Positions 489-32,887 of a stretch of 64,000 bases of DNA are shown here, one piece after another. Made by a program: the position numbers and the translations under genes. Source of the stretch: Pseudomonadota bacterium (GTDB taxonomy: Bacteria > SZUA-182 > DTGQ01). The notes beneath the pieces are model-generated. The model saw only the letters and a program-made list of their open reading frames with translations, had not been told where the DNA came from and made no database searches. Where the stretch lies: the NCBI GenBank assembly GCA_030625085.1, contig DAOURK010000008.1, positions 2,024-66,023 on the forward strand, read 5' to 3'. Position 1 is the first letter of the stretch. Each line of letters opens with the position of its first letter.

Positions 489-1667
489 ATGCCAGATAAA
501 AGACTCCCGCAATTCGTTTTCCTGTTTACCATTTTTTGTTCCATGCTGTTGGTTAATTTTGCGTGGGACCCCGTATTGGTCAGAGCTGCAGATCAGGAAA
601 ATTGTATGCTTTGCCATCGTTATTCCGGTCTGGGCTGTTTTGACAAAGATACAGGCGCGAAAAAAATCTTTTATGTGAATGAAGCGCTTTACTCTAATAC
701 TGTTCATAACAATGTTCTTTGCACCCACTGTCATTTGAATCTGAAAGAGGTGCCGCATAAACCGGCCAAAAAAGTTGATTGTGGAACAAAATGTCATGTA
801 AAGGATCCTTCTACCAATAAGGATTTTTCCCATAAAATAGTGGTAGATGAATTCAGAAAAAGCGTGCATGGCGAATCTGCCCTTTTTACCTATAAAGACA
901 AGCAGCCTCGATGTAAATATTGCCACACCAATCCTCTTTACTCACCCCTGCGAGGAATTATGGCCGAAAAGCCGGGTTGCGAATCAGAGGCGCTTGCCAG
1001 GTGTTTAGCCTGTCATGAAAAAAGTCCGTGGACGAAAAGATTTTTAAAACATTTTGTTTCCCGGACATCCTCACGTTGGAATAATAAACAGATGGTGGAC
1101 CTTTGTAATAATTGCCATGCGGATGAGGAATTTATGCACAGTTTTGGGCTTGAAACCACTGCTAATTTCAAGAGTACGTTTCATTACCGGAATGTGAAAT
1201 ATGAAAGTGAAAATGCCGCTAATTGCTTAAGCTGCCATGGGCCAAGTCAACCTATTGAGATTGAAGAGGGAAAACCTGTGCAATTTTCCGCTCATTCGAT
1301 TAAGTCTGCCGATAATCCGAAATCTTCGCTTTTCAAAGAACACCGGGCCCTTACGTGCGGACAGTTAGGGTGCCATGAAGGCGCCAATAGGTTTTTTGCC
1401 TCAGGTGCGGTACACGGTACGGGGACAAAACCAACCTTACTGCGTAAACGGTTAGTAGCAGAGGCCGAAGAATTAACCCAGGAAGAAAAGGAAGAGATTA
1501 AGGCTGACATTAAAAAGGCCAAGATGGATAAACTCCAATTAACCATAATTTGGGGCATTAAGGCCTTTTATAAATTAATGATTATCCTCGTTGGAGGGTT
1601 TATGTTTGTTCATCAAATGCTGGACTTGAGAATAACCTTGAAAGAGAGAAGAGAGGGGAGACATTAA
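489..1667 (+). CDS. Membrane-anchored multiheme cytochrome c with about 8 heme-binding motifs. A C-terminal TM helix makes it the candidate periplasm-facing subunit of a quinol-oxidoreductase-type complex.
   Basis: Motifs seen: CMLCH, CTHCH, CGTKCH, CKYCH, CLACH, CNNCH, CLSCH, CGQLGCH. A hydrophobic C-terminal helix (IIWGIKAFYKLMIILVGGFMFV) is present. RBS GAGGAG sits 9 nt upstream. The stop overlaps the start of the next gene (TAATATG). Confidence 0.8.
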   Translation: MPDKRLPQFVFLFTIFCSMLLVNFAWDPVLVRAADQENCMLCHRYSGLGCFDKDTGAKKIFYVNEALYSNTVHNNVLCTHCHLNLKEVPHKPAKKVDCGTKCHVKDPSTNKDFSHKIVVDEFRKSVHGESALFTYKDKQPRCKYCHTNPLYSPLRGIMAEKPGCESEALARCLACHEKSPWTKRFLKHFVSRTSSRWNNKQMVDLCNNCHADEEFMHSFGLETTANFKSTFHYRNVKYESENAANCLSCHGPSQPIEIEEGKPVQFSAHSIKSADNPKSSLFKEHRALTCGQLGCHEGANRFFASGAVHGTGTKPTLLRKRLVAEAEELTQEEKEEIKADIKKAKMDKLQLTIIWGIKAFYKLMIILVGGFMFVHQMLDLRITLKERREGRH

Positions 1668-1668
1668 T

Positions 1669-2454
1669 ATGGCCAGGAAATGGGGAAGAAGGTCAGAAGA
1701 TCAACAATACTTCGCTCGACTGTCGCGAGCTGAAGTATGGCAGCATAATATTGTTTGGATATCCTTTGTTTTATTGGTAGCTACGGGAATGATGTCTTTA
1801 ATACCAACCGATTGGGTAACGACCATGTTTGGCAGTTATACCACCCAAGTTTACTATTACCGTCGTATTGCTCATCTCGTCTTAGCGGTGCTTTTGATTG
1901 CCGGTTCTATATGGCATCTAGCTTATGGTGCATTGACGGAAGCCGGAAGACAGATGCTCAAGGATATGATTCCTACTTATACGGACGCCATTCAAATGAA
2001 GCAAAATATACAGTATATGCTCGGAATGTCGGATTTTAAACCTAAATTTGATCGTTTTGATTATCGGGAAAAAATGGAGTATATTTTTGGGCTAATCGGC
2101 ACCACGGTTATTGTTTTGACCGGCATTGTCATGACCTTTGCTCCCTATTTCCCTAAATTCATGGTTGATGTTTGCGGTACCTTCCATTTATGTGAGGCTA
2201 CCCTGGCCAGTATTACTATCGCAATCTGGCATTTCTACGCCATACATTGGAAACCGGGGCAATTCCCCCAGGACACTTCATGGCTTGACGGAATGGTAAC
2301 CATGGATCATTTGAAACATGAACACCCGCTGCAATGGGAGCGAGTAATGAGAGAAAGAGAAACGGCAAAAAAAAGAAGTGATGATTTTTCTTTTTTGGAT
2401 ACTCCCTCAACGAAAAGGCAATTTAATAACCTGCCGGAAATGGAGGAGGAATAA
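1669..2454 (+). CDS. Di-heme cytochrome b membrane subunit of the HyaC/FdnI-like family.
   Basis: Several TM helices carry conserved histidines (HLVLAVLLIAGSIWHLAYG; HFYAIHW). The gene is translationally coupled between two c-type cytochrome genes. Confidence 0.65.
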   Translation: MARKWGRRSEDQQYFARLSRAEVWQHNIVWISFVLLVATGMMSLIPTDWVTTMFGSYTTQVYYYRRIAHLVLAVLLIAGSIWHLAYGALTEAGRQMLKDMIPTYTDAIQMKQNIQYMLGMSDFKPKFDRFDYREKMEYIFGLIGTTVIVLTGIVMTFAPYFPKFMVDVCGTFHLCEATLASITIAIWHFYAIHWKPGQFPQDTSWLDGMVTMDHLKHEHPLQWERVMRERETAKKRSDDFSFLDTPSTKRQFNNLPEMEEE

Positions 2455-2457
2455 TCA

Positions 2458-3369
2458 ATGAAAAGCGGTCGTGGAAGTCTTGCTAAATTAATCAGTGTTC
2501 TATCAGCCATATTATTGGTGATTTGTTTGTTAATGATGGTAAAAGTTTTCTATTTTCCGAAAAAAGGGATCCATCACGGGCCACCCGGCATTGAGTTTGA
2601 AGAGACACAACAGGGAGAGTTGCCGAGAGTTATTGATACAAAGCCCATTGGAGTTGAGGTATTTGATAAGATCTTAAAAGAGAAGGCCTTTTCTCAAATG
2701 GAACATTTCCATAATGTGGACGATAGTCTTGATATCAAAAAACGGGTCCCTTCCCTCTGTTTAATTTGCCACGGGAGTTACCCTCACATTAAAGATAAGG
2801 AAGTTCGATCGCTCTATAATATGCACACCTTCTTTTGCGCCTGTGAAACGTGCCATACAAAGGCTACCAATGTTACTTATCTATGGTTTGATAATTATAC
2901 AGGCGAGAAAATCCCGGAGATCAAAGATCGTGTTCCGGACGGCGTTTATGCCGGCAATTATGGGGCCAAAATTGTTCCTTGTCTACCTAATAAAATTGGT
3001 AAATTCCAAAGACTTGATCAGCCTATTACTCAAGAATCTGCCCAAGAATATTTAAAATTATGGGCTCAATATAACTATGATCAGCAGTCAAAGGCCAAAG
3101 CTGAGGTGCATAAGCGATTGACTGACAAACCGGTTACCTGCTCTGAGTGCCATCGGAGGAAAGATCCCGTTTTGGATTTTAAGGCCCTGGGATATCCAAA
3201 GCACCTGTGTGATGAATTTACTGGAACTGAGGTAGCCGGTATGGTTGGTAAATATAAATCTTTATATCTGCCTACAATGTTTCGACCTGAAAATATTATC
3301 GACGGCAAAAGAACTTTAAAAGACGGTAAAATGCCTCTTCCCCTAACGGGCCAGGAAGGTATATTTTAA
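2458..3369 (+). CDS. Membrane-anchored triheme cytochrome c.
   Basis: N-terminal TM helix followed by CLICH, CETCH and CSECH. It starts 4 nt after the stop of the cytochrome b gene. Confidence 0.75.
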   Translation: MKSGRGSLAKLISVLSAILLVICLLMMVKVFYFPKKGIHHGPPGIEFEETQQGELPRVIDTKPIGVEVFDKILKEKAFSQMEHFHNVDDSLDIKKRVPSLCLICHGSYPHIKDKEVRSLYNMHTFFCACETCHTKATNVTYLWFDNYTGEKIPEIKDRVPDGVYAGNYGAKIVPCLPNKIGKFQRLDQPITQESAQEYLKLWAQYNYDQQSKAKAEVHKRLTDKPVTCSECHRRKDPVLDFKALGYPKHLCDEFTGTEVAGMVGKYKSLYLPTMFRPENIIDGKRTLKDGKMPLPLTGQEGIF

Positions 3370-3533
3370 TAAAACTTTTATGCCGATCATTCTTATTCCC
3401 GGCATCTTTCATCACAGACAAAAAGTAATTGACATTTTTTGACTGTCAATTCAAGGAATAAATAGCTGTCATTTTAGGGAATAAATAACATAAAAAGTAA
3501 ATTCCCACCACCTTCCCTCAAGGAGAAAAAAAA

Positions 3534-4661
3534 TTGCTGCGCTTGCCGCTCCGGCCGCCTCCGCCCTTATCCGGAAAACTTGGGACCGGAAAAATAGAAA
3601 TAATTGGAGTAAGAAAAAGTAAATGGTTACTCATTATAGGTCTTGTTGTATGTCGGCTCTTTATTTTTTTATTATTTTCTATAGGAAAAGTAAAACCGGC
3701 GGCGGCGGAGATTATTTCCGTCAAGCATCTCTTTGATATAGAAAAAAATGCTGTTGCCCCTCCCCTTAACCAACCAAGTGCAGTAGCCGTCGATCCCCAA
3801 AAAAGAATCTGGGTCCTCGATGGTGTCAACAGCCGGCTGGTAGGATTTTCATCTAAAGGAAAATATTTGACTCAATTTGGCCAAAAAGGAAGCGACCCTG
3901 GAGAATTTAAATCTCCATTGGGATTGACGATTGACTCTGAGGGGTTGTTGTATGTGGCCGATTCCAAGAATCATCGGATTCAAATTTTAGATGAAGCCGG
4001 TGGTTTTCTATCAGAATTGTATATTTCACCGGATAAATACGGCTGCTTGGCCGATCCGACGGATATTGTTTTAGACAAAGGTAAGCAGCGAGTTATCATA
4101 GTGGATAATGATAATCATCGTTTATTAATTTACAGATGGAAGTACAAATTAAGCGATCAGAAGCCGGTTGTTAGTGATGAAAAAAAGGCGGAGACTGCAC
4201 CTGAAAAAGAGGCTAATGCTCAGGCTATGGAATTAATAAGTGAGATAGGCGGTGTCGGGTATGAAGAGGGAAATTTTCGGTATCCTTATTCTGCTTGTAT
4301 AGATACTGCCGGCAATATCTATGTTACTGATGTGATCAACACCAGAGTTCAAGTATTCAACCCGCAAGGTGAGTTCATACGAAGCATAGGCGAATGGGGT
4401 ATTGAAAAAGGACAATTTTTCAGACCCCAATCTATTTGTATTGATCGGCAGGGAAGAGTTTTTGTTGGCGAAAACTATGATAAAATCGGCTTAATTCAGG
4501 TTTTTGACCAACAGGGCAATTTATTAGGCATAATTGGAGATGCCCAGAAACAAAAAATTCGTTTTCGGGTCCCAACCGATTTGTACATTGATCAACAAAA
4601 TCGATTGTATGTTGTTCAGATGTATACCAGTGTTATAAGTGTTTATTCTTTTATTGATTAA
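3534..4661 (+). CDS. NHL-repeat beta-propeller protein with an N-terminal membrane anchor or signal.
   Basis: TTG start with AGGAG 8 nt upstream. Repeated NHL-type blades are visible (YVADSKNHRIQILD, YVTDVINTRVQVFN, FVGENYDKIGLIQVFD). The N-terminal hydrophobic segment is WLLIIGLVVCRLFIFLLF. Confidence 0.7.
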   Translation: MLRLPLRPPPPLSGKLGTGKIEIIGVRKSKWLLIIGLVVCRLFIFLLFSIGKVKPAAAEIISVKHLFDIEKNAVAPPLNQPSAVAVDPQKRIWVLDGVNSRLVGFSSKGKYLTQFGQKGSDPGEFKSPLGLTIDSEGLLYVADSKNHRIQILDEAGGFLSELYISPDKYGCLADPTDIVLDKGKQRVIIVDNDNHRLLIYRWKYKLSDQKPVVSDEKKAETAPEKEANAQAMELISEIGGVGYEEGNFRYPYSACIDTAGNIYVTDVINTRVQVFNPQGEFIRSIGEWGIEKGQFFRPQSICIDRQGRVFVGENYDKIGLIQVFDQQGNLLGIIGDAQKQKIRFRVPTDLYIDQQNRLYVVQMYTSVISVYSFID

Positions 4662-4685: not shown

Positions 4686-7600
4686 ATGTTTAATCAAAAT
4701 TCTCACTATACTATCCTCCCCGGTTTTTTCAGAAAGTCTTCTCATAGTCAATTTACCCGCGGTCTGTATCTTTTCTGTTTATGGCTGATGGTAAATTTGG
4801 CCTGTTTTGTTTACCCGGTTCATGGACAAATGGTGCCGAACTCGGCTAAAGAATGCGCCATTTGTCACTTTCGGTGGTTGGATCAATTTTATCATGAGGG
4901 TCGAGGCACGGATCTGGTAAAGTACCAGGAAGAACGAGTAGCCGCCAGTGAAATGATTTGCTATAGCTGTCATAATGGTATTTTGGTTGACTCTCGCGAT
5001 CGATTTTGGGCTAAACGTGGGCACCGGGTGAATATGAAACCTTCGGACAAGATAAAGATTGATAAGGATATGCCCCTGGGAGAAGAGGGAGAGGTTACCT
5101 GTGCCACCTGCCACACTGCCCATGGTGTTTCCGACGAATTGCGCTATCAGCAAACGATTCATCTTCGATTTCCGAACCGGAATTCGGAAATTTGTATTCG
5201 ATGTCACTTTACCAAAACCGGCGGGCCGCCGGGAGGAAATCATCCCCTGGGAGTCAGCTCAATCCCTATTCCGACCAAAATCCTGGAAAATTACGGTCGA
5301 GCAGGTGTAAAAAAGGATGCCGTTATTTGCGAAACCTGCCATACTGTACATGGAACTATGGATAAAAACCTTTTGGTAATTCCGAATAAAATTGGGGAAA
5401 AATACACCGCCTTTTTATGTGAATCCTGTCATACGGCTAATCCCAGTCTGAGGGGCAAAGGCATAGGCAAGGGAACGCATCCTGTTAATAAAGTATCTAA
5501 GTTAAAAATGCCGTCTAAGTGGACTGACGGTTCTTCAATTATCACCGGGGCATATGGTCAAATCATTTGTTTAACCTGTCATTCACCTCATGAGGCCCAA
5601 AAAGAAACCTCTATTTTGGTGAAAGGGTCCAAATCGCCTCTTTGTATTGAATGTCACCAGCAGGAAAAAAACATTGCCGGAACAGAACATGATCTTACTT
5701 TATCCGCACCGGCTGAGATCGATTTAACTTCCAAAGTGGGCTCCCAAACAGGAATTTGCAGCGCCTGCCACAGACCGCACAATGCCGAAAAATATCGCCT
5801 GTGGTCGCGTTCTTTAGCCGGCCTTAAGGGAGACGCCGGCTCCCGGATGTGTGAGAGTTGCCACCATGTCAAGTCTTGCGCCAAAAAAAAATTGACCGGC
5901 GCCTTTAGCCATCCTGTGAATCGAGATATGTCCAAGGTTACAAGAAAAAAACAATTCCCTGCTTATGATGGAGAAGCCCGCCCTGCTGATCAAGGGAATA
6001 TCATGTGCGCTACCTGCCATAATCCCCACCAATGGGACCCTGAAAAAAATCAGTATGGATCAGGCCAGATGATTGAAGGCAACCGCTCAAATAGTTTTTT
6101 AAGAATGCCTAATAACAAGGATTCCGGTTTTTGTCTTGCCTGCCATCAGAGTAAAAACATGTTGATAAAAACAGATCATGATTTGCGGATTACAGCTAAG
6201 GAGGAACTCAATTCATTGGGGCAACTATGCACTCAATTCGGACCTTGCAGCGCCTGCCACGTGGTGCATAATGCTCAAGGAAACAAGCTGTGGGCTCGCT
6301 TGCTGCCTCAGGCCGATGATCCCATATCCGCCCTTTGCCAAAGTTGCCACCGGCAAGAAAGTTGCGCTCAGAAAAAATTGGTCGGCGCTTATACCCATCC
6401 AGTCCAAGCTGATATTCAATCGGCAGGAAATAAGACTTCACTCCCCTTATTCAATAAAAAAGGTGATATTAAAGCCCAAGCTAAATTGGTCACTTGTTCA
6501 ACCTGCCATAATGTCCATCAGTGGCGACCGGATCAAAAAGGTTTTGGTTCAGGCAAAAATGTAGAGGGAGAGGGGAAGGATAGTTTCTTAAGGATTGTCA
6601 ATGATGATAAATCCAGCCTCTGCCTTGATTGCCATAAAAACAAACAGTATATTGCTCAAACCGATCATGATTTGCGGTTCATGGCTCCCAAAGAAAAAAA
6701 TATTTTAGATACCGTACCGCAAAAAAGCGGCCTTTGCGGTTCCTGTCATCTGGCACATAATGGTGCGTCGATTTTTATGTTTGCCAAAAACTTGAATAAC
6801 CAAGGAGATTTAGCCAATCAATTATGTGCTTCCTGCCATAGAGAAAAGGGATGTGCTGAAAAAAAGGTAATCACCAATCATACTCATCCCCTGGATAAAG
6901 GGATTAAATCGGCAGACGAGTCTACCGGTCTTCCTCTTTACATGCCGGATGCTTCTAAACAGCCGGAAGGTAAGGTAGCTTGCCCCACCTGCCATAATGT
7001 GCATCAGTGGTCATCAACCGAATCGGCTTCCGGAACCGGAAAAAACAGGGAAGGGACGGCCGACAATAGTTTCCTTCGGCTCTCCATGTTGCCCAATCCA
7101 TCTCTTTGTGAAGATTGCCATCAAAAGGAATGTAGAATTGTTTACACCGATCATGATATGCGCATGGTGGCCGAAGGCGAAAAAAATATTCGAAATCAAA
7201 CTGTCCAAGAATCAGGGGTTTGCTCAGCCTGTCATTTGGTTCACAATGCCCCGGAGGATAATATGTGGGCGCGAGAGCTTCCTTACCTGGCCCAAAGCTT
7301 GATTACCCGGGAATGCTGCAGTTGCCATAGTGAGGGAAAGGCAGCTAAAGAAAAAATTATCGCCGGTTTTTCCCACCCGGTGGATATTCCTCCTGCCGAA
7401 AGGGAAATCACTACCGGCTTGCCCCTTTATACCATGGCCGGGGAGGTGGGAAAGTCGGCTAATGACCTTATGACTTGCACTACTTGCCATAATCCGCATC
7501 AATGGTCACCCGGGTATAAAGAAGATGAGACACCAACAAAAACAGTTACCCGGGGACAAAAGAAAAGGATTTTCAAGAAAAATCTTGAGGGAGATATTTA

Positions 7601-8267
7601 TAACAGTTTTTTAAGGCTGACGGAAGAAAAAAAGAAAAATCTGTGTACGGACTGTCATCAGGATAAACAGCATATTTGTCTGAGTGAACATGACCTGCAG
7701 TTGCTGGCTGCTGATAAGCCAAATTTACAAGGACGAACAGTAAAACAATCAGGTGTTTGCTCTGCATGTCATCTTGTGCATAACAGTCCCTATAAAACAA
7801 TTAGTTGGGCTCGGCAACTGCCGCCGGGAAAAGATTTTATGCTGACCACCTGTCTTTCATGCCATGAAAAAGACAAATGCGCTGAGAAAAAAATTGCCTT
7901 TATCGGTCTTCATCCCAGATCCTTCGTTTATACCGGCAAAATTACCCAGTTCCGAAGAATGGGGAATGTTGACTATCAAAGTTATTTTCCATTATATAAT
8001 AACAGTGGGGCAAAATCGCCAATCGGGTATGTAACTTGTCCTACATGCCACAATGTTCATCAGTGGGACCCTCAATCGAAGGTATACCCGGAGGGGAGAA
8101 AGAATATTGAAGGGGACCCCCGCAATAGTTTCTTGCGCAATAGCGGGGCCCAATTCTCTATTTGTCTTGATTGCCATGGTTTTGAAGCCATTCTCAGATA
8201 TAAAAATTATCATGTTCCTTCAGAATGGCAGCAAAAATATTGGCGGCCGGGCCAGAAAATAAAATAG
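4686..8267 (+). CDS. Giant modular multiheme cytochrome c of 1193 aa with about 28 CxxCH motifs. It is built from about five tandem tetraheme modules.
   Basis: I counted 28 CxxCH motifs. A recurring module runs NSFLR - CxxCH - DHDL - CSACHxVHN - WAR - CxSCH - HP - TCxTCHNxHQW. A signal-like N-terminus is present. Confidence 0.85.
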   Translation: MFNQNSHYTILPGFFRKSSHSQFTRGLYLFCLWLMVNLACFVYPVHGQMVPNSAKECAICHFRWLDQFYHEGRGTDLVKYQEERVAASEMICYSCHNGILVDSRDRFWAKRGHRVNMKPSDKIKIDKDMPLGEEGEVTCATCHTAHGVSDELRYQQTIHLRFPNRNSEICIRCHFTKTGGPPGGNHPLGVSSIPIPTKILENYGRAGVKKDAVICETCHTVHGTMDKNLLVIPNKIGEKYTAFLCESCHTANPSLRGKGIGKGTHPVNKVSKLKMPSKWTDGSSIITGAYGQIICLTCHSPHEAQKETSILVKGSKSPLCIECHQQEKNIAGTEHDLTLSAPAEIDLTSKVGSQTGICSACHRPHNAEKYRLWSRSLAGLKGDAGSRMCESCHHVKSCAKKKLTGAFSHPVNRDMSKVTRKKQFPAYDGEARPADQGNIMCATCHNPHQWDPEKNQYGSGQMIEGNRSNSFLRMPNNKDSGFCLACHQSKNMLIKTDHDLRITAKEELNSLGQLCTQFGPCSACHVVHNAQGNKLWARLLPQADDPISALCQSCHRQESCAQKKLVGAYTHPVQADIQSAGNKTSLPLFNKKGDIKAQAKLVTCSTCHNVHQWRPDQKGFGSGKNVEGEGKDSFLRIVNDDKSSLCLDCHKNKQYIAQTDHDLRFMAPKEKNILDTVPQKSGLCGSCHLAHNGASIFMFAKNLNNQGDLANQLCASCHREKGCAEKKVITNHTHPLDKGIKSADESTGLPLYMPDASKQPEGKVACPTCHNVHQWSSTESASGTGKNREGTADNSFLRLSMLPNPSLCEDCHQKECRIVYTDHDMRMVAEGEKNIRNQTVQESGVCSACHLVHNAPEDNMWARELPYLAQSLITRECCSCHSEGKAAKEKIIAGFSHPVDIPPAEREITTGLPLYTMAGEVGKSANDLMTCTTCHNPHQWSPGYKEDETPTKTVTRGQKKRIFKKNLEGDIYNSFLRLTEEKKKNLCTDCHQDKQHICLSEHDLQLLAADKPNLQGRTVKQSGVCSACHLVHNSPYKTISWARQLPPGKDFMLTTCLSCHEKDKCAEKKIAFIGLHPRSFVYTGKITQFRRMGNVDYQSYFPLYNNSGAKSPIGYVTCPTCHNVHQWDPQSKVYPEGRKNIEGDPRNSFLRNSGAQFSICLDCHGFEAILRYKNYHVPSEWQQKYWRPGQKIK

Positions 8268-12744: not shown

Positions 12745-13995
12745 CTAATACGCATGGCATTCATTACATAACTGCTTTGAACCATCCAGTCGCATAAGCT
12801 GCGGGAATTCGGCCTCCATCATATTATGACAGGTTATGCAATCAATAAGGGACTTATCTCTCGGATCTATGGCTTTTTCACCCACCGGATGACAGAGCCC
12901 CTTTTGTCGCTTGTGACAATCGATGCAAAGGGTAAGAGGGGAAGTTTTTAAAAATTTCAGCTTGTCCGAGGCATGAGCATCATGACAAGTAGAACATTTC
13001 CCTGCTGAAACCTCCGGATGACGGTTAAGTCCCTTTTTCTGCACTCTGAGCCTTTTTCGTATATCCTGATGGCAGGCCGTGCAAAGAGGCCTATCACTCC
13101 TTCTCACCAAATCCTCTCTTTCCGAACCGTGGGGATTATGGCAGAAGACACATTCATCCCGGCCGGATACAATATGACTTTTCTCTTTGGCCTTAAACTT
13201 CTCTTTGGTTTTTGGATGACAGGCATAACAGTCTTCCGCTCTGGCGGTAACGGGTCCGGAACCTGATGAATCAGGGTGACATTTCAGACATTCTTTTTGG
13301 GTATAAGGATCATGTGAGAAGCTAAAGAGTAAATTCTTTTTGTTGGTAGAATGAGGATTATGACAGCAAAGACAATCAACTTGATTGATCTGAAAATCCG
13401 GGTGTTCAGCTTTCAAGCTTTCCGTTGTATGGCATTGAAAACACAGTTGAGGTGATAACTGGGTAAGTAGTAAGGGGTTTTGAGAACTATGGGTTTGATG
13501 GCAAATGGTACAACTGCCTTCTTCAACCGGTTGATGAACATATTCCTTTTCAAATGATGCCTTATCATGACACTGATAACATAAATCCTCTCCCTCCAGC
13601 CTTAAAAGACTGGTGTAAGGTGATACATGCGGCTGGTGACACTTAAGACACTCTCCATATTCCACCGGAAGATGCACTGTTTTATCTTTAAGCCAATTCC
13701 TGTTGGATTCATGACACCCATAGCAAAGAGCATCTCCAATATTAAGCAGAAGATTTTGGTGCTTGGCTGCATGGGGTGTATGGCAGGAGATACATTCTTT
13801 GACGTTTAAGGCCTGATGGGGCTTGCCCTCTTCTAATTCCTCTTTCATTTCCGGATGACAATCAAGGCATGCTTGCTTTAAATCGGATTTTAATATTGCT
13901 TTTGCCTTTACCTGCACTACCTGCCGGCCTAAAATCAGACCAATAATAATAACCCCTAATAATAAACTTAATCTTGATCCAGCTATTTTTTTCAT
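12745..13995 (-). CDS. Multiheme cytochrome c with about 16 hemes and a repeated CxxCHxPH motif.
   Basis: 16 CxxCH motifs, most followed by xPH and then LL about 8 residues later (CISCHTPHAAKHQNLL, CLKCHQPHVSPYTSLL, CLCCHNPHSTNKKNLL). The track start at 14088 overlaps the upstream gene. I prefer Met32 (MKKIAGSRLSLLLGVIIIGLILG, a signal-like sequence) at 13995; Met24 at 14019 is the alternative. Confidence 0.8.
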   Translation of the reverse strand: MKKIAGSRLSLLLGVIIIGLILGRQVVQVKAKAILKSDLKQACLDCHPEMKEELEEGKPHQALNVKECISCHTPHAAKHQNLLLNIGDALCYGCHESNRNWLKDKTVHLPVEYGECLKCHQPHVSPYTSLLRLEGEDLCYQCHDKASFEKEYVHQPVEEGSCTICHQTHSSQNPLLLTQLSPQLCFQCHTTESLKAEHPDFQINQVDCLCCHNPHSTNKKNLLFSFSHDPYTQKECLKCHPDSSGSGPVTARAEDCYACHPKTKEKFKAKEKSHIVSGRDECVFCHNPHGSEREDLVRRSDRPLCTACHQDIRKRLRVQKKGLNRHPEVSAGKCSTCHDAHASDKLKFLKTSPLTLCIDCHKRQKGLCHPVGEKAIDPRDKSLIDCITCHNMMEAEFPQLMRLDGSKQLCNECHAY

Positions 13996-14011
13996 AGTAT
14001 CTTCATAACCC

Positions 14012-15985
14012 TCATTCATGACATGCTCGACAATTTTTCTCAATGAAGGGCAGGTGTATATGGGGTAAAAACAGCCCCTCTTCCTCACTCATATGGGGAT
14101 CGTGACAAATCAGGCAATTGCTTTTTGCCGCAGGGATACCCATATGACTTTTTGGAAACTCAGGTCCTTCAACGTTATGACAGCCAATACACAAATTTCT
14201 TTCCTGCGCCGTAAGGAGCCCTTGATAAGCCGAATCATGCCCGCTGTGGCATTCTAAACAATCTCCCTTGATAATGGGTGAATGCACCACCATATTCTCT
14301 TTTTCTATCTGCTCTTGCATTTCCTCGTGGCAAAAGAGGCACAAACTGCCGGTCGAACTTCTTAAATAATGGTCCAGCTTATTCCCATGGGCATTGTGAC
14401 AAGATATGCACTCCTTCTTATTCAACGGCTCGTGCACTACTTTTGCCTCATTTATCTTTTTTTCGATTGAATCATGGCAGCCATTGGCCATACATACCTG
14501 ACTGCCGGGTAACAGGAGCACATTATGATATCGGCCGGCGTGGGCATCATGGCATCCCAGGCATTGCCCTTTCTGGCTTAAAAAATGTAGGTATCCTTCT
14601 TTTTGTCCCGCTGCCAAGTCAGAATGACATTGAAAACAAACCTTATCGCTTGTGGTCGTCAGGAGGTTGTCCTGAACTGATACATGGGGTTCATGACAGT
14701 CTTTACAAGTGCCTTCCGCAATAGGCGTATGAATATGAACATTGGAAAATTTTTCTTTTTCCTTTGTGTGGCAATCAAAACAAAGCGCTGCCTTCGGTTT
14801 TTTGGCCTGCCCCGGAAAATCAGTGGCATGAGCATCATGGCATACGAGGCATTCCCCTTTGTCTACGGGTTGATGCATACAAGGGCCCTGAAAATCTTTT
14901 CCCGGGTGGCAGAGAGCACAAAGGTCCCGGCCGACTGCTTTGAGTTGATGCTTCTTATCGGCACCATGAGGAAGATGACAACTGCTGCATCCCTCTTTAT
15001 CCGAAGCCGTATGAGTAAAGGCCTTATTGAATATATCCCGAGTCTCCTGATGACAGGAAAAACAAAGTTTCCTTTCCTCCCGGTTCATAAGGGCGGAATG
15101 ATTCGATGTATGAGGATCATGACAGGTCAGGCAATTGCCCTTCACCGTAGGATCATGAATAAAATTTCTTCTCAATTCCTTTTTCATACTGCTGTGGCAT
15201 TCCAGGCATAATTCCGACCCAGTCTTAGTGGTTTTAAAGGGAGAAGGGTCAGTGGGGGCGAGATGACATTCCCGGCATTGACCGCCTACCATGGGCTTAT
15301 GGACGGTAATCTTCAATAACCCTTTTTCCTTTGCAGAGTGCGGGTCGTGGCAGGAAAGGCAATGTTCTCCTTCCAGTGTATAGCCCTCGTGGGCCTCTGT
15401 TAATTCCTGATTTACCGGATGACACTTTAGACACAGATCTTTTGATGGGCTTACTATCTGGTCCGGATAATCAGAGGCATGGGGCATATGACAAACCAGG
15501 CACCCTGTTTCTTTGAGCGGGCTATGGATAACCGCCCTTTGAAAGGGTTCTTTGTTATGACAATCATAGCATACCTCATCACCCGCTCTCTTTAATAAAT
15601 CAGGCAGATCTGCCGAGTGCGGATCATGACAGGGAGAGCATTTTCCCATCTTAAACTGAGAATGCTGATACTGCTTTTGGGTAAGCGCCTCCTCCTCTTT
15701 ATGGCAGGTATAGCATACCTTGGCCTCTACCCCCTCCCAAAGGTGTAAAACCCCCACTGTCCCATGGGGTTCATGACAAGCCTTACAATCCTTTTTCTTA
15801 ATAGGGTCATGGACTTCTTTGCGAACAAGATAGGCCGTAAGTTCTTTTTGATGGCAGCTATCACAAGTGCGGCCGGCAAAACGGGCCTCCCTGCCCGCCC
15901 TCCCTTTGGGCGCACAAGAACAAAGTATCAGGCATACGGGTATGGTCAAAAGCCACAAAAAATATACTCTTCTTACATTTTTCAC
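14012..15985 (-). CDS. Large multiheme cytochrome c of 657 aa with about 26 hemes and a signal or lipoprotein N-terminus.
   Basis: 25 CxxCH motifs plus one CxxxxCH. The spacing is regular with CxxCHxPH-type repeats. The N-terminus is MKNVRRVYFLWLLTIPVCLILCSC. Confidence 0.85.
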   Translation of the reverse strand: MKNVRRVYFLWLLTIPVCLILCSCAPKGRAGREARFAGRTCDSCHQKELTAYLVRKEVHDPIKKKDCKACHEPHGTVGVLHLWEGVEAKVCYTCHKEEEALTQKQYQHSQFKMGKCSPCHDPHSADLPDLLKRAGDEVCYDCHNKEPFQRAVIHSPLKETGCLVCHMPHASDYPDQIVSPSKDLCLKCHPVNQELTEAHEGYTLEGEHCLSCHDPHSAKEKGLLKITVHKPMVGGQCRECHLAPTDPSPFKTTKTGSELCLECHSSMKKELRRNFIHDPTVKGNCLTCHDPHTSNHSALMNREERKLCFSCHQETRDIFNKAFTHTASDKEGCSSCHLPHGADKKHQLKAVGRDLCALCHPGKDFQGPCMHQPVDKGECLVCHDAHATDFPGQAKKPKAALCFDCHTKEKEKFSNVHIHTPIAEGTCKDCHEPHVSVQDNLLTTTSDKVCFQCHSDLAAGQKEGYLHFLSQKGQCLGCHDAHAGRYHNVLLLPGSQVCMANGCHDSIEKKINEAKVVHEPLNKKECISCHNAHGNKLDHYLRSSTGSLCLFCHEEMQEQIEKENMVVHSPIIKGDCLECHSGHDSAYQGLLTAQERNLCIGCHNVEGPEFPKSHMGIPAAKSNCLICHDPHMSEEEGLFLPHIHLPFIEKNCRACHE

Positions 15986-18295: not shown

Positions 18296-18781
18296 TTATT
18301 TATAATACCTTTCCCCGTGACAGGCAATGCACAATTGGGCCGAGACCGGTTTTCTGCCCAGATATTCCTCATCACTCCCATGAGGCGTATGGCAAGTAAG
18401 GCAAAGAATCTGTCCGAATGATCCCTTCGGCAATTCCTCGGGTATGCGAATCTCCTTTGTCGGATATACCCCCACAGGATGGGAAATACCTAGATTCTTT
18501 TTTGTATGACAGCAATAACACACATTTATTCCTATGTCATCCACAGAGCGCAACCCCTGCTCATGATTTTCGTCTTTTGAAGGCTCATCCGGTAACACAT
18601 GACAAAAAGAGCATTTTTTTTCCGAAAAAGGTTGATGAACATAGGTATACGCTTGTTCTACCACCTTGTTATGACATTCCAAACATTTCAAATCCTGCTC
18701 AGTTTCCTGAGCGCGACCTAAAAAGATTGAAAGACAGATAAAAACAAATACACCTAAAACTGCCCAGTGGATAGGCCTCAT
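18296..18781 (-). CDS. Pentaheme cytochrome c, periplasmic, with signal peptide.
   Basis: Motifs seen: CLECH, CSFCH, CYCCH, CLTCH, CIACH. The signal sequence is MRPIHWAVLGVFVFICLSIFLGRA. Confidence 0.8.
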   Translation of the reverse strand: MRPIHWAVLGVFVFICLSIFLGRAQETEQDLKCLECHNKVVEQAYTYVHQPFSEKKCSFCHVLPDEPSKDENHEQGLRSVDDIGINVCYCCHTKKNLGISHPVGVYPTKEIRIPEELPKGSFGQILCLTCHTPHGSDEEYLGRKPVSAQLCIACHGERYYK

Positions 18782-19395
18782 ACCTCATCATTACCTATTG
18801 CGGAAACCAGCCTCTGGGCCAGCTTTTGGGCCAGGGAAAAAGCTGCCTGTCTATCCTTAACACCCAAAAGATATCCTTGAGCCGCCCCTTTCTCCATAAA
18901 CTGCCCTTGTCCTAAAATCCGGCCGGATCGTGTATCAAGGATGGTGCTGTGAACCATAATTTTAGGCACAGTTGATTTTTTATCCTTCCTCCGGTGAGCG
19001 CCATAACTATTTCCAACCCCGTACTGGAGGACAGTGCCTATGATAACCGCTTCAACCTTAAATTGTTTCCTGAATGCTCTCAGGGTTTCAATATCAATAG
19101 TAGATACTGAAATCTTACGCCTGATCAGGAAAAATTTTCTCACATCACCATACTTGATTAAGCGAAATTTTTCAAGTTTTATGAGTTCAGCCATGAGTAC
19201 GTTAGTCATAATTATGCCGGCGTTTGTTTTTTGACTAAGGTTATGGAAGGGGAAGACCGCCAAAGACTTCACCCCCTTAAGGGATTGGCTGTCCATATGA
19301 TAGTTACTTTTGTACTGAAGCCCTTGACATCCGGAATAAAGGACGATGCCGAACATACCCAGACAAAAAATTATCAATATTTTTTTCGTACTCAT
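18778..19395 (-). CDS. Lipoprotein, the first of three tandem paralogues sharing a (V/I)AV(F/L)PF(H/E)N(L/F)S motif. The fold is possibly LpoB/CsgG/TolB-N-like, but this is tentative.
   Basis: Lipobox LYSGC. The motif SLAVFPFHNLSQ is present. Size and layout match 19549-20178 and 20194-20805. Confidence 0.5.
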   Translation of the reverse strand: MSTKKILIIFCLGMFGIVLYSGCQGLQYKSNYHMDSQSLKGVKSLAVFPFHNLSQKTNAGIIMTNVLMAELIKLEKFRLIKYGDVRKFFLIRRKISVSTIDIETLRAFRKQFKVEAVIIGTVLQYGVGNSYGAHRRKDKKSTVPKIMVHSTILDTRSGRILGQGQFMEKGAAQGYLLGVKDRQAAFSLAQKLAQRLVSAIGNDEV

Positions 19396-19548: not shown

Positions 19549-20178
19549 TTAACTTCTGCGCCTCCTTGGACTTCGCCTCCTTTGCCTGGGTAATGGTATT
19601 TCCTTCACTAGGTCTTTGACCACTTCATTAATCAAACAATCCACCTGGCCGATATAGTTTATGCCGAACCACGTCTCCTTATGACGGCCATAAGAAAAGG
19701 CGCATCCCATCCACAGGATAGGGGTCCCTTCTTCCATGCTGATCATTTTCATGATCAGGCCAAATCCCGGATCGGGGGTTTCCTGGTACTCACAGATCGC
19801 CCCTAAGATAATGGCTTTTGCCCGAAGGTTTTTCCCGATGGCTGAAGCTTGTTTTGAAGTCAAGTATCCGGTGTGTCTGAGTCTTTGCCGCAAAATGACC
19901 CTATCTACCCTCTCCCAGGATGAAAGGGTATAGATTTCATCCAGGTTTTGATAGACGGCTTTCATTACATCATCAATCACCAAAAAGCGCCCACTCAAAT
20001 TTTCAAAAGGAAGAACAGCTACTTTTGTCCCGTAGCCCGGCTTTTTTGCCCTCATCAAGAAAATAGGCAGATCTATTGCCTCTATAGCCATTGATTCTCC
20101 CGCCAAAAGAATGACTGCTAAAACTTGCAGGCAGACAAAAAGGCCCAGATAGATAAAAACAATATATGGCCTCTGCAT
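19549..20178 (-). CDS. Lipoprotein or anchored paralogue 2, carrying KVAVLPFENLSG.
   Basis: N-terminal hydrophobic anchor. The motif VAVLPFENLS is present. It ends in a Pro/Arg-rich tail (PRQRRRSPRRRRS). Confidence 0.5.
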   Translation of the reverse strand: MQRPYIVFIYLGLFVCLQVLAVILLAGESMAIEAIDLPIFLMRAKKPGYGTKVAVLPFENLSGRFLVIDDVMKAVYQNLDEIYTLSSWERVDRVILRQRLRHTGYLTSKQASAIGKNLRAKAIILGAICEYQETPDPGFGLIMKMISMEEGTPILWMGCAFSYGRHKETWFGINYIGQVDCLINEVVKDLVKEIPLPRQRRRSPRRRRS

Positions 20179-20193
20179 CGCTTATCCTTCCCA

Positions 20194-20805
20194 TCATTTA
20201 TAGATGAGTGTTTCCACAATTTTTTTACATGCCTTAATAGCCGTCTCAGTCACCGTTCCCTCCCCTATCCCCAGGATACTGGGAAGGATGCGGTTTCCTT
20301 TCTCAGTATGACTGATCGCCCAGATAATTGACCCTGTCTTGGCATCAATCATCCTTAAAGATAGAGAGACTTCCGGATAAGAACCGGAGCCGCTGCGAAC
20401 TATCCTATATTCTTCAACATTTCCCAGGACGATCCCTTGAATTTTGAGAGCCTGCCCGAGTTCTTTGGCTACCTCCTTGGTAATTGTTCCTTTAAAGGTT
20501 TCCTGCCCGGGCGCTGAGGCAGCCAGGTTAATGTTATTTATAACCTGTAATAACTCTCCCAACTCGGGGACTTCAACCATTTCGGAGGCCAATAAGGTGG
20601 TGACAAAAATATCTCTCACCTTTTTATGAGCAAAACGATCATTAGTAAAATTTTCAAATGGGAGTACGCCTACCTTTTTGACAAACCGGAAATTGACGTT
20701 CGGATTAATGTAAACCTTAGATTTTGTAGCCACGCAACCGATATAACCGAACAACATCAAAAAAGAGACCATAGACAGCAAAATCCTTGATTTCATAGAC
20801 CTCAT
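20194..20805 (-). CDS. Lipoprotein paralogue 3, carrying KVGVLPFENFTN.
   Basis: Signal plus lipobox FGYIGCVA. The motif VGVLPFENF is present. Confidence 0.5.
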   Translation of the reverse strand: MRSMKSRILLSMVSFLMLFGYIGCVATKSKVYINPNVNFRFVKKVGVLPFENFTNDRFAHKKVRDIFVTTLLASEMVEVPELGELLQVINNINLAASAPGQETFKGTITKEVAKELGQALKIQGIVLGNVEEYRIVRSGSGSYPEVSLSLRMIDAKTGSIIWAISHTEKGNRILPSILGIGEGTVTETAIKACKKIVETLIYK

Positions 20806-20904: not shown

Positions 20905-22557
20905 TTAAAAAATTTGTAATGTTAACCCGAGCTTCACAATTTGTTCCTTTGACGGATATTGATACTGTAAGTCTAAACGAATCTTGCTGGTGATATTAAT
21001 GTCCATTCCCCCTAAAAAGTAAGGTTCAAATTCGCCTGATCGATAGCTCACATCAAACTCCAACTTGGAAGTGGGACGCCAGTTGAAAGAATATTGATAA
21101 CTTGTCTCATTGCCTCCATAACCACTAGTATACCCGACATCGAGCATAAAGGTCCTCACCGGCCTATAGACTAATTTTGTTTCAAGATTACCCGAAGAAT
21201 CGGTCCCCCCATCACTTTTACCACTATCCGCCGTCCATTCGGACCTTTGTGATATTGAAGCCTTTAGATTCGGCAACAAATTCAGGTTAAAATGACTATT
21301 TACTCTTTTTCCCACCCTTTTAGTGTCGGAAATAAAATTCTTGGTCTCAGTAAGCCCTATATCCATGGCAAGGTCTACGCCCTGGTAAACAGTGGTTGAT
21401 CCGGTCAAAAGAAAAGACAACCGGTGATTCTGTTTTGTTCCCCCGCTTTTATCAGTGTAATTACTTATAAGAAAAGAGGTTTTAATGGGATACATGGGTT
21501 TATTCGGATCAAAGATTAATCCCTTTAGTTGAGGGTCCATCTTCAGTGAATAGGTAGTCGCCTCTCTCGGCTCGGAACCGGGGCCCATCCCACTCCTGTT
21601 ATAATTCATACCGAGGGTTATGGGGATATTATAGGGCGCGAATTTAGGGTCAAGGGAAAGACTGAATATATGCCCTATTGAGCTGTCTTTATGATCAGGG
21701 TGGTCCGTTTCGATCCTATTCATAAATAATCTATACCCGGGTTTCATCCATTCAGTAACTTTCCCATCAATGTTAATATGGGCATTCTGCTCCAATGTTT
21801 TTTTAACCAGGCCCTCTTTATCCAGGCCTTCTTCCTCTTTATCCCGGCTTTGATCTTTATCCCGGCTTTGACTCACCTCATATCCCGTTCCGATATTTAA
21901 TCTCTCATTAAAGAAGGAAAATCTCTGCCCGATCCGACCGCTGTTTAAAAGATCATAGGTGGTGGTTACCTTGCCGTTCTTATCCCATCTACGGTAGTTG
22001 TAACTGTGATCCAGGGTTAAAAATCCGATGGTTAACGAATAATTCTCGCTAACGGATGCTCCCTTTTCTCTGGTAATGTTTCCCCCTTCCCGATCCTCTT
22101 TTTGATCTTGGAATTGGCACAGGATATGAGGCAGCCACTTCGGCCGCCAGGCAAAACTGGTGTAACCCCTTTCATTTATATAGGAGCTTTTTTCTTCGGA
22201 AATAAAATCCTTGCTCCAGCCTAAATTCACATCCATCATCTGATGCCCCAGTCTCATATTCAGGGAGGGCAACGCTTGGGCCCGTTCCCTGGCCCCCTCT
22301 TCTTCCCTTGTCTCCGACCTGAACTCAAGTTTAAGGCCGGCGTCGTATAAGGGCGGTAATCTCCTTAATAAAATCACATCATACGTCTGCGTAAAGCGAG
22401 TATTTCGTTTATCATCAGTTTTTCTCTGCTCCCACAAAAAATCTGCCGAGCCTTGCATGCCGCGAGCTTTAGCTAGAGGACACAGAGTTATGAACATCCA
22501 AAGGGTAAAGCTCAACATTATTAAACCCACATTGCTTTTTATTGCCCTCTTCCTCAT
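20905..22557 (-). CDS. Putative outer-membrane beta-barrel, a candidate porin partner of the adjacent giant cytochrome.
   Basis: Signal peptide MRKRAIKSNVGLIMLSFTLWMFITLCPLAKARG. Alternating hydrophobic beta-strand pattern. C-terminal ...LGLTLQIF ends in Phe, the typical OMP signature. Confidence 0.5.
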   Translation of the reverse strand: MRKRAIKSNVGLIMLSFTLWMFITLCPLAKARGMQGSADFLWEQRKTDDKRNTRFTQTYDVILLRRLPPLYDAGLKLEFRSETREEEGARERAQALPSLNMRLGHQMMDVNLGWSKDFISEEKSSYINERGYTSFAWRPKWLPHILCQFQDQKEDREGGNITREKGASVSENYSLTIGFLTLDHSYNYRRWDKNGKVTTTYDLLNSGRIGQRFSFFNERLNIGTGYEVSQSRDKDQSRDKEEEGLDKEGLVKKTLEQNAHINIDGKVTEWMKPGYRLFMNRIETDHPDHKDSSIGHIFSLSLDPKFAPYNIPITLGMNYNRSGMGPGSEPREATTYSLKMDPQLKGLIFDPNKPMYPIKTSFLISNYTDKSGGTKQNHRLSFLLTGSTTVYQGVDLAMDIGLTETKNFISDTKRVGKRVNSHFNLNLLPNLKASISQRSEWTADSGKSDGGTDSSGNLETKLVYRPVRTFMLDVGYTSGYGGNETSYQYSFNWRPTSKLEFDVSYRSGEFEPYFLGGMDINITSKIRLDLQYQYPSKEQIVKLGLTLQIF

Positions 22558-31837: not shown

Positions 31838-32887
31838 CTATCTCTGGTTATTATGACAGCTTAAGCATCCGGGGACATCCCCATCGCCGGCAATCTGTAA
31901 ATCATAGTCAAATCGTAAAATATCATTATTCCCCGTGCCGTGGGCTCGATGACAGGACAAGCAGGTAACCCTTCCTACCTTCGTTTCATCTGCCTCGGCA
32001 AATCCCAGAGGATTATTCACTCTGTCCTCATCATCATAATTTGTATCATGTGCAGTACCATTATCATTGACGATTCCCCAGGTCTCCTCGTAACCTCCGC
32101 CTGTATGGGGGATATCAATATCTGTAGGATGGCGGACAAAGGGCGATGAGCCCTGTAAATGAAAATTACCATGGCATTTTCCGCAAAAATCACTAATAGT
32201 TACCTCATCCTCTCCAGCGCTATAGACATTATAATTAGGGTCCGATGAAGCACCGGTAATTAAACCTTCTTCATAATCGCCACACCCCTTACCAACAACA
32301 GGGTCCCCATCTACATAAAGCATCCGATAGGTGGAACTAACATTGTGATGCCCTTTTTTGATTGCTTCAGTATCATCAACTGAGGTTTGATTTCCATGAC
32401 ACCCTGTGGCTCCGGCGCAGGTGAACTTATGTTCACCGCCGTCATCTCCCTTATACCAATCCTCCCCAGAGGGATTATATCCCACAGGTGTTTCCGTACT
32501 CCCCAGGGTATGACTATTATCATCATGGTTTTCATCGTCAGTATCATCAGTAAAAAAGCCACCGGCCAGACACTGACCATCACTTAAAGCCGTACCTTGA
32601 ACAAAAGGCGTATGATAGGTATCATCACGGGGATCGGTGCTGCCGTCCGGCGCAGTATGGCAACCGATACAATCATCTTTCAATAAGATTTCATAGGGCC
32701 CCTCCATGCCGTATTCCAGAGGAACGGTGCCATTCTGGCTGTAATGCATAGTATGACAATCATTGCACGAGCCGCCGACATCGGCCCCGGCAATATTTCC
32801 GGTAGCCACTATAATCAAACATGATACAGCTAAAACCATAGAATTTAATATGATACTTTTTATCTGTTTGGTGATATGTTTCATCAT
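31838..32887 (-). CDS. OmcS-family hexaheme cytochrome c.
   Basis: Motifs seen: ADVGGSCNDCHTMHYSQNG, CIGCH, CAGATGCH (CxxxxCH), CGKCHGNFH, VTCLSCHRAHGTGNNDILRFDY. The C-terminal end is ...GCLSCHNNQR. Confidence 0.65.
   Translation of the reverse strand: MMKHITKQIKSIILNSMVLAVSCLIIVATGNIAGADVGGSCNDCHTMHYSQNGTVPLEYGMEGPYEILLKDDCIGCHTAPDGSTDPRDDTYHTPFVQGTALSDGQCLAGGFFTDDTDDENHDDNSHTLGSTETPVGYNPSGEDWYKGDDGGEHKFTCAGATGCHGNQTSVDDTEAIKKGHHNVSSTYRMLYVDGDPVVGKGCGDYEEGLITGASSDPNYNVYSAGEDEVTISDFCGKCHGNFHLQGSSPFVRHPTDIDIPHTGGGYEETWGIVNDNGTAHDTNYDDEDRVNNPLGFAEADETKVGRVTCLSCHRAHGTGNNDILRFDYDLQIAGDGDVPGCLSCHNNQR

Follow-up and report, generated by a model that had tools for sequence, protein, structure and literature searches.

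We analysed a stretch of 64,000 nucleotides (nt) from a Pseudomonadota bacterium (GenBank assembly GCA_030625085.1, contig DAOURK010000008.1, positions 2,024 to 66,023; hereafter the window), in which the open reading frame (ORF) at 4686-8267 on the plus strand is the last of five collinear genes that we call A to E. The analysis confirmed gene E, as judged from its sequence, to be a 28-haem c-type cytochrome that arose by old tandem amplification of a tetrahaem module, and it indicated that the whole protein is made of such modules, with seven units fused into one chain and the subunit of the nanowire cytochrome OmcE as the nearest known relative of the unit. A first-pass annotation of the window had proposed a 28-haem cytochrome of about 1200 residues built from five tandem modules, and the counts agreed with it: the 1193 open codons encode a predicted secreted protein of 1193 amino acids (aa) with exactly 28 CxxCH motifs, 66 Cys and 63 His, and a motif scan of gene E found neither of the variant haem motifs CX3-4CH and CxxCK.

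Units, haem ligands and relationship to OmcE

Starting at haem 8 of gene E, a spacing of 38, 31, 52 and 42 residues is repeated five times. In the phasing of the first-pass annotation the five tetrahaem modules occupy residues 306-468, 469-631, 632-793, 794-972 and 973-1146; they are about 163 aa long rather than the roughly 150 aa that had been estimated, and they align end to end with 33-43% identity. Pairs of modules matched each other in blastp at 34-42% identity with E-values of 1e-33 to 1e-46, in keeping with the tandem repeat that had been claimed, and with all Cys and His columns stripped the identity was still 25-38%. A hidden Markov model (HMM) of the module scored 234-252 bits on each of the five modules, whereas no domain in the window's 11 other multihaem ORFs exceeded 19 bits; generic likeness among CxxCH sites therefore does not account for the repeat, which is specific. 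In the DNA of gene E, only short islands of 21-59 nt with 62-84% identity recur, at a spacing of about 486-561 nt, and Tandem Repeats Finder reported no array. Each module was most similar to the module at the same position in homologues 72% and 49% identical to gene E, a positional orthology that disappears in homologues at about 35-40% identity; the five-module state is thus older than the divergence at 49%, and the earlier suggestion of an old amplification with modules diverged at the DNA level is well founded.

The count of five units is right for the canonical copies and too low for the protein as a whole. We compared units by profile-profile alignment, using slices from an alignment of 36 homologues that carry 28 haems, in which hhalign matched unit 3 with unit 4 at a probability of 100% (E 3e-77). 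The same comparison paired residues 175-324 with canonical unit 4 at 99.4% (E 8e-22) and residues 48-174 with it at 98.5% (E 2e-15), the latter with the four haem sites, the His of HP(V), the (L)PL element and FLR-x-CxxCH all in register, and the module HMM scored 41 bits on residues 164-306, the region of the second degenerate unit. On these alignments the N-terminal head of about 300 residues is a pair of degenerate copies of the unit, and gene E has 7 x 4 = 28 haems. The motif string that had been given for the units (from NSFLR-CxxCH to TCxTCHN(V/P)HQW) was correct except in module 1, which starts with KETSILV, and a phasing that begins at NSFLR displaces the natural unit boundary by one haem. 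The natural unit runs from an 'HDL' element to the next FLR-CxxCH, and when phased in this way gene E ends at a unit boundary followed by a cap (Table 1). Homologues align to gene E only from about residue 14-55 onward. We set aside the possibility of a polyprotein that is cleaved into OmcE-like monomers, as the junctions consist of about 11 conserved residues from a haem site to the next ligand His, with no linker.

All 28 CxxCH motifs are invariant among the 36 homologues, as are 27 further His: each module has four, the first 300 residues contain six and the C-terminal tail adds one. No Met is conserved at 80% or more across these sequences. The haems of gene E are therefore predicted to be essentially all bis-His. 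Unit 1 is without two of the four distal His, since no 'HDL' element precedes it and an invariant Trp64 takes the place of the His in CxxCH-xx-His, and the 27 conserved distal His set against 28 haems imply that a conserved sixth ligand is missing for one haem of the N-terminal unit. The 'HDL' His sits 11 residues past the last haem site of the preceding unit. In the 29-residue tail, His1176 follows the His of the last CxxCH by 12 residues, the same spacing as that of the inter-unit 'HDL' His, and it probably acts in cis as the ligand that would otherwise come from a following unit.

To place the unit among known structures, a profile of 41 units from the family was searched against all PDB sequences. 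The first match was 9yuq_N, deposited as 'Putative multiheme cytochrome c' (E 1.1e-11), which is an OmcE homologue from Desulfuromonas soudanensis whose structure was solved as a bundle of filaments (doi 10.1101/2025.10.22.684050), and the second was 7tfs_A, the subunit of the Geobacter sulfurreducens OmcE filament (E 2.4e-9), followed by OmcS (6ef8, E 2.5e-6), NrfA in fourth place (2rf7_A, E about 6e-6) and MtrA in eighth (6r2q_A, E 5e-5). Clear resolution of OmcE came only with the 41-sequence profile: a single-sequence phmmer search of the PDB with the whole protein gave a weak match to NrfB (E 9e-4), and a profile of five module sequences ranked NrfA first and OmcE fifth. Once re-phased, OmcE and the unit align in four collinear segments that span all four haem regions. 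The matches take in motifs outside the haem sites: T-K-H-D-L corresponds to T-D-H-D-L, LPLF is matched as well, C-x-F-C-H-T-P-H-N-A...P-L-W-N-R pairs with C-S-A-C-H-x-V-H-N-A...L-W-A-R, and the C-terminal LR...SKLCLGCHK of OmcE pairs with the N-terminal (F)LR...S-x-LCxDCH of the module. Pfam matched only generic multihaem families on gene E (Paired_CXXCH_1, c3_2, c7 and the MtrC/F II-IV domain).

An AlphaFold2 model of two modules (residues 469-793, haem-free) reached a predicted local distance difference test (pLDDT) score of 86.9 and a predicted template modelling (TM) score, pTM, of 0.84. The OmcE filament 7tfs was the sole Foldseek match of this model with a meaningful probability (0.95), over 206 columns with a TM score of 0.42 normalised to OmcE, a root-mean-square deviation of 5.2 Å and an E-value of 0.03. 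OmcE and OmcS have been reported to be without Foldseek matches beyond their own homologues (PMC9473688). A wire-like arrangement of gene E is plausible on the model. On the profile evidence, the repeat is an OmcE-type subunit concatenated covalently and not a polymer of c7 domains, the comparison that had been recommended at first: the unit is tetrahaem, OmcE homologues head the PDB profile matches, and proteins of the GSU1996 type are absent from them at E ≤ 1.

Family, cassette and genomic surroundings

More than 1000 proteins matched the whole gene E protein at E ≤ 1e-5, with annotations that went at most as far as 'cytochrome c3 family protein'. A search of 1.84 billion cluster representatives with the five-module profile found 858 proteins at E ≤ 1e-3 and 276 at E ≤ 1e-30, with 2-14 matched stretches each and lengths of up to about 2500 aa. 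With one genome taken per GTDB species, 368 stretches encoded a relative of gene E; host taxonomy was examined in the best 80 of these 368 matching species genomes, and loci were compared for the 79 best. The 80 genomes were all metagenome-assembled genomes (MAGs), with unclassified MAGs as the closest relatives. Gammaproteobacterial hosts were sulfur and iron oxidisers (Sedimenticola, Polarisedimenticolaceae, Thiohalomonas, Thiobacillus, Sulfuricella, Sulfurimicrobium and Gallionellaceae), and the others belonged to Nitrospirota/Thermodesulfovibrionia, Thermodesulfobacteriota, Deferribacteres and unclassified bacteria.

The number of haems in the large cytochrome varied across the 79 loci, with 24 haems in 39 loci, 20 and 28 haems in 16 loci each, 18 in 10, 31-32 in two and 35 in one; one homologue (P0009) has 48. 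The 18-haem form consists of a six-haem head and three units. Judging from these numbers, whole units have evidently been gained and lost.

In 45 of the 79 loci the genes are collinear in the order A-B-C-D-E with gene E last, and eight more have A-B-C-E with a propeller nearby, most of the rest being truncated contigs. These loci span Gammaproteobacteria, Nitrospirota, Thermodesulfobacteriota and Deferribacteres. No porin gene was found within the cassette in any locus inspected, the window included, and on a complete Desulfobacterales chromosome the cassette stands among unrelated genes. The first-pass annotation had described an NHL gene followed by its cytochrome; the upstream gene D is indeed an NHL propeller, but the conserved context is a cassette of five genes that includes a cytochrome b.

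Two variations on this arrangement were seen. In eight Nitrospirota/Thermodesulfovibrionia loci (L062, L063, L064, L066, L068, L074, L080 and L081), two complete A-B-C-D-E cassettes stand in tandem, with 18-haem and 20-haem forms of E. In six loci of Sedimenticola/Chromatiales type (L015, L018, L023 and L028-L030), a small E-like cytochrome, an NHL propeller and a cytochrome of 23-28 haems follow in this order, with no A-B-C genes immediately upstream; the small cytochrome has 322-326 aa and eight haems in five of these loci, and in L023 it is a contig-truncated piece of 231 aa and six haems.

Table 1. Parts of gene E and the other genes of its cassette, with positions in the window
Feature	Residues of gene E	Position	Strand	Basis
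Gene A, 392-aa hexahaem cytochrome c		489..1667	+	6 CxxCH, signal peptide, C-terminal transmembrane helix aa 351-369
Gene B, 261-aa membrane cytochrome b, FdnI / Ni-hydrogenase cytochrome b type		1669..2454	+	PF01292
Gene C, 303-aa trihaem cytochrome, N-terminal membrane anchor		2458..3369	+	3 CxxCH, transmembrane-like aa 12-30
Gene D, NHL six-bladed beta-propeller, N-terminal hydrophobic anchor or signal		3534..4661	+	Pfam NHL
Gene E, signal peptide region	1-47	4686..4826	+	Hydropathy; core LYLFCLWLMVNLACFVYPV, then VHG/Q
Gene E, unit 1, degenerate, haems 1-4	48-174	4827..5207	+	hhalign, invariant residues
Gene E, unit 2, degenerate, haems 5-8	175-324	5208..5657	+	hhalign, module HMM
Gene E, unit 3, canonical, haems 9-12	325-487	5658..6146	+	Module alignments, hhalign
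Gene E, unit 4, canonical, haems 13-16	488-650	6147..6635	+	Module alignments; inside modelled aa 469-793
Gene E, unit 5, canonical, haems 17-20	651-812	6636..7121	+	First 143 residues in modelled aa 469-793
Gene E, unit 6, canonical + 14-aa insertion, haems 21-24	813-991	7122..7658	+	Module alignments
Gene E, unit 7, canonical + 10-aa insertion, haems 25-28	992-1164	7659..8177	+	Module alignments
Gene E, C-terminal cap and stop codon	1165-1193	8178..8267	+	Invariant His1176

Genes A, B and C of the window are separated by 1-3 nt, B starting 1 nt past the end of A, and D and E by 24 nt. Gene A matched the Pfam MtrC/MtrF II-IV domain and no NCBIfam model, and PDB searches with genes A and B were uninformative. 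The PF01292 match of gene B scored 34.5 bits against a cutoff of 30.1, accompanied by weak NCBIfam matches to FdnI; its hydropathy indicated three clear transmembrane segments and a weaker fourth, with His within the transmembrane helices, and the likely b-haem ligands are His26, His69/83 and His173/188. A three-haem orthologue of gene C holds the same position in related loci. Gene D matched Pfam NHL with four repeats (E 5.4e-34) and also the six-bladed propeller family DUF5128; it has a transmembrane-like segment at residues 32-50, its orthologues are 305-380 aa long, and translation of gene D probably begins further downstream than the TTG at 3534. A scan for promoters and terminators around the operon gave nothing above shuffled expectation. 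The unusually long gap between C and D contains a perfect inverted repeat, TTGACA-N9-TGTCAA (3429-3449, +), which is unique in the window and may be an internal promoter or operator; its significance is weak, as such a repeat with one mismatch arises in 19% of shuffles.

The cassette opens a dense cytochrome island that extends from 489 to 39314 in the window and holds 12 multihaem ORFs with 136 CxxCH motifs (6, 3, 28, 8, 14, 16, 25, 12, 7, 5, 7 and 5), together with five NHL propellers, one propeller of the YncE/lactonase type and a SurA-like peptidyl-prolyl isomerase (PPIase). A 415-aa seven-haem cytochrome at 29313-30560 (-) matched OmcS (6ef8) along almost all of its length, over residues 39-393 against 7-346 (E 1.9e-4), and similar cytochromes of 349-385 aa are encoded at 31838-32887 (-), 35835-36959 (+) and 38157-39314 (+), of which the 374-aa member had no PDB match in a single-sequence search. 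Each of these four adjoins an NHL propeller gene, so that the NHL-to-cytochrome theme noted in the first-pass annotation recurs in four further pairs in the window.

Directly downstream of a 1768-aa cytochrome gene and 12.6 kb from the cassette lies a 550-aa ORF (20905-22557, -) with a signal peptide and no Pfam match, which ends in ...VKLGLTLQIF, a C-terminus typical of outer-membrane beta-barrels, and which may be the barrel part of a secretion or anchoring cluster like those of OmcS and OmcE. The 1768-aa protein (22650-27956, -) combines an N-terminal part that bears 12 CxxCH motifs with Ig-like domains of the Big_1 / invasin D3 kind at the C-terminus, and looks like a cell-surface cytochrome-adhesin; the G+C content of this region (24-28 kb) is 51-52%, against about 40% in its neighbours. 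Three consecutive ORFs of about 205 aa without a Pfam match (18778-19395, 19549-20178 and 20194-20805, -) sit between the PPIase/HAMP genes and the barrel-like ORF. At 12745-15985 (-) there are two cytochromes of very high haem density, one of 657 aa with 25 CxxCH motifs (12 Paired_CXXCH_1 stretches, about 26 aa per haem) and one of 447 aa with 16; the two overlap at 14012-14088, and one start codon is probably mis-set.

Possible roles of the cytochrome

We consider it moderately probable that gene E encodes a fixed-length, single-chain wire of OmcE type that lies in the periplasm and is fed by a quinol-oxidoreductase module. This reading starts from what was observed here, namely the repeat architecture, the relationship to OmcE, the numbers of ligands and a conserved cassette; what it would add is the geometry of the haem chain, a place in the periplasm, the way in which electrons flow and the identity of the partners. 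The protein would be exported by Sec with its seven tetrahaem units fused head to tail, and the 'HDL' His would probably ligate in cis what an inter-subunit His ligates in trans in the filaments of OmcE and OmcS. In OmcE the rise is 34 Å per tetrahaem subunit and a His of one subunit ligates a haem of the next (PMC12954529, PMC9473688), and under a linear relation of haem number to length about 27 haems span a periplasm of 200 Å (PMC7096707). The outcome in gene E would be one insulated chain of 28 haems whose length is set genetically, at about 24 nm (7 x 34 Å) or about 20 nm (from the haem number), enough to bridge the periplasm, and 27 His for 28 haems is the count expected of a finite chain of units with a capped C-terminus. 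Gene E would be co-transcribed with a membrane module composed of A with its C-terminal anchor, the dihaem cytochrome b (B) and the anchored trihaem C, which would pass electrons to or from the quinone pool. The wire would carry these electrons through the periplasm and link the module, in either direction of flow, with partners in the outer membrane or outside the cell; here those partners may belong to the adjacent cytochrome island, and gene D would act as a scaffold, as has been proposed for NHL propellers elsewhere. The number of units (5, 6, 7, 8 or about 12) would set the reach of the wire.

Several observations weigh against this reading. The E-values of the OmcE profile matches are partly carried by Cys and His columns, and the Foldseek match to OmcE, at a TM score of 0.42 and an E-value of 0.03, is suggestive and not conclusive. 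A whole-protein AlphaFold2 model built with the 36 homologues was weak, with a mean pLDDT of 61.5 and values below 50 in the head, and Foldseek returned nothing for it against the PDB; the two-module model contains no haem, and the continuous chain and rod shape are inferred. The 18-haem variants and those of 34-35 haems break a strict rule of 4n. The likeness of A and B to CbcA and CbcB of Geobacter is seen in architecture and Pfam family. The hosts are all uncultured MAGs, and their physiology gives no constraint on direction or substrate. Finally, OmcE is extracellular, and the candidate barrel, propellers and PPIase lie 12-14 kb from the cassette in the window, so that gene E could itself be exported.

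A C-terminal cap with its own 'HDL-type' His argues against head-to-tail polymerisation in the style of OmcE, and tight co-transcription with three inner-membrane-anchored proteins better suits a periplasmic partner. We therefore think it unlikely that gene E encodes an extracellular wire, whether alone or as a block or tip of a longer filament, with D aiding export or anchoring and the membrane module only supplying electrons. No large beta-barrel is encoded in the cassette at the inspected loci, moreover, and the cassette often stands alone among unrelated genes. What speaks for a place at the cell surface is the likeness of the unit to OmcE, which is extracellular and whose gene clusters hold beta-propeller proteins and multihaem cytochromes, together with the OmcS-like cytochrome, probable barrel, SurA-like PPIase and additional propellers within 35 kb in the window. 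For D. ferrophilus, it has also been suggested that NHL propellers stabilise complexes of outer-membrane cytochromes (PMC5815863).

Lower still in our estimation is a role mainly as a periplasmic electron store, in which up to 28 electrons would buffer the quinone pool under intermittent supply of acceptors or donors. The many closely spaced bis-His haems would suit such a role, the cassette encodes no outer-membrane partner, and large multihaem cytochromes, components of PCC3 among them, have been proposed to store electrons (PMC10734462). A store leaves unexplained, however, the strictly linear units, the distinct ends with an open N-terminal haem and a capped C-terminus, and haem numbers that cluster around values in line with the width of the periplasm; storage and conduction are not mutually exclusive. 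Very improbable, in our view, is an enzyme in which the unit 1 haem without a distal His is catalytic, the NHL propeller binds substrate or mineral and the rest of gene E is an electron-delivery arm, as suggested by the 27 invariant distal His for 28 haems, the invariant Trp64 at +3 of haem 1 and a weak resemblance, in profile searches, between part of the unit and NrfA, given that no Lys, Tyr or Met is conserved as a candidate ligand, no catalytic domain is recognisable, the NrfA similarity covers a two-haem electron-transfer segment only, and a tail of 24 haems far exceeds what known multihaem enzymes use.

A bolder version of the periplasmic wire, which we offer tentatively and regard as rather doubtful, combines a fused OmcE-type wire of exact length with an N-terminal haem whose unsatisfied ligand position serves as a docking socket for a His of A, C or D, a number of units tuned to the periplasm width of each lineage, and a family that is either ancestor or derivative of the polymerising nanowires. 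If the socket were real, a partner His would plug the wire into the quinol oxidoreductase.

The passage of electrons across a periplasm of about 20 nm is an open question in extracellular electron transfer, as are the origin and assembly of cytochrome nanowires and how they start and stop. The gene E family may offer a fixed-length OmcE-type wire with distinct ends, easier to express, solve and measure than a polymer, and would tie giant multihaem cytochromes evolutionarily to the subunits of polymerising nanowires. With its varying number of units, the family would allow a direct test of how wire length relates to the dimensions of the cell envelope. The cassette occurs widely among uncultured sulfur- and iron-cycling Gammaproteobacteria, Nitrospirota and Thermodesulfobacteriota, and the family could serve as a new genomic marker of long-range periplasmic or extracellular electron transfer.

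Comparison with known systems

The Geobacter 'periplasmic nanowires' GSU1996, GSU0592 and GSU2210 are built of repeated trihaem c7 domains and carry 12 or 27 haems. They share with gene E the concept of a long periplasmic cytochrome in which a small multihaem domain is repeated, and Pfam Cytochrome_C7 gave partial matches on gene E. Identity with these c7 polymers was rejected on the tetrahaem units, the clustering at 20, 24, 28 and 32 haems and the want of any GSU1996-type chain at E ≤ 1.

The A-B-C module resembles, by analogy of its parts, a quinol:cytochrome oxidoreductase of the CbcBA type. CbcA, with seven haems and a C-terminal anchor, and the dihaem cytochrome b CbcB form an inner-membrane quinone oxidoreductase that is required in low-potential extracellular respiration (doi 10.1101/2021.04.15.440034), and genes A and B likewise encode a C-terminally anchored multihaem cytochrome c (6-7 haems against 7) and then a dihaem cytochrome b of the PF01292/thiosulfate-reductase-like type. 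Unlike the cassette, the cbcBA operon as described has neither a giant cytochrome nor an NHL propeller.

The PCC3 clusters of Fe(II) oxidisers encode very large repeat-containing cytochromes (21-35 or more haems) that were proposed to span the periplasm, the periplasmic ones having 21, 24 or 27 haems, together with a porin, extracellular and periplasmic cytochromes and an unannotated protein with five transmembrane segments and two HX13H motifs, and they include no NHL propeller (He et al. 2017, PMC5566968). An inner-membrane b-haem-like protein and overlapping hosts (Gallionellaceae, Sulfuricella) are common to both systems, whereas the cassette has no porin and instead combines a PF01292 cytochrome b, two anchored small cytochromes and an NHL propeller. 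Identity with PCC3 was rejected on gene content alone, as given in the descriptions of the clusters, and Sideroxydans was not among the best 80 of the 368 matching genomes.

MtrA and DmsE would share with gene E the linear wire of bis-His haems, and the TIGR03508 and GSU2203 families matched residues 75-179 of the head in part; they differ in their partner porin, in having 10 haems against 28 and in the lack of a modular repeat. Membership was rejected for DmsE/MtrA (TIGR03508), with 79.7 bits where the cut-off is 192.2, for the GSU2203 family, with 74.2 where it is 325, and for the HmcA family, which fell far below its NCBIfam cut-off.

In the literature searched we found no account of tandemly fused OmcE-type units or of an A-B-C-D-E cassette. 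Proteins of 24 and 28 haems have been described in other contexts (the S-layer proteins of anaerobic methanotrophic archaea (ANME), Methanoperedens, Geoalkalibacter with FN3 domains and the PCC3 of Sideroxydans), and the most recent survey of OmcE mentions only five-haem OmcE-like proteins of similar length. The subunit of OmcE (7TFS, 9YUQ), like the unit of gene E, has four CxxCH motifs and four distal His, a conservation that extends to OmcE homologues (Petersen et al.), and the two share in the same cyclic order T-K/D-H-D-L, CxxCH-xx-HNA...LW-x-R, CxSCH, LPL(F/Y), CxxCH-xx-H and LR...LCxxCH. Both have a beta-propeller gene and further multihaem cytochrome genes alongside. The omcE cluster has a large beta-barrel besides its two multihaem cytochromes and its pair of beta-propeller lipoproteins, whereas the cassette of gene E has two small cytochromes, one NHL propeller and a cytochrome b, with no barrel; the barrel-like ORF at a distance of 12.6 kb was seen in the window only. 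OmcE is a monomer of about 200 aa that forms a non-covalent extracellular polymer, and gene E has seven units of about 163 aa in one chain with a self-capping C-terminus. By sequence, OmcE thus appears to be the closest known relative of the unit, and the single-chain fusion a new feature among the multihaem wires of the OmcE family.

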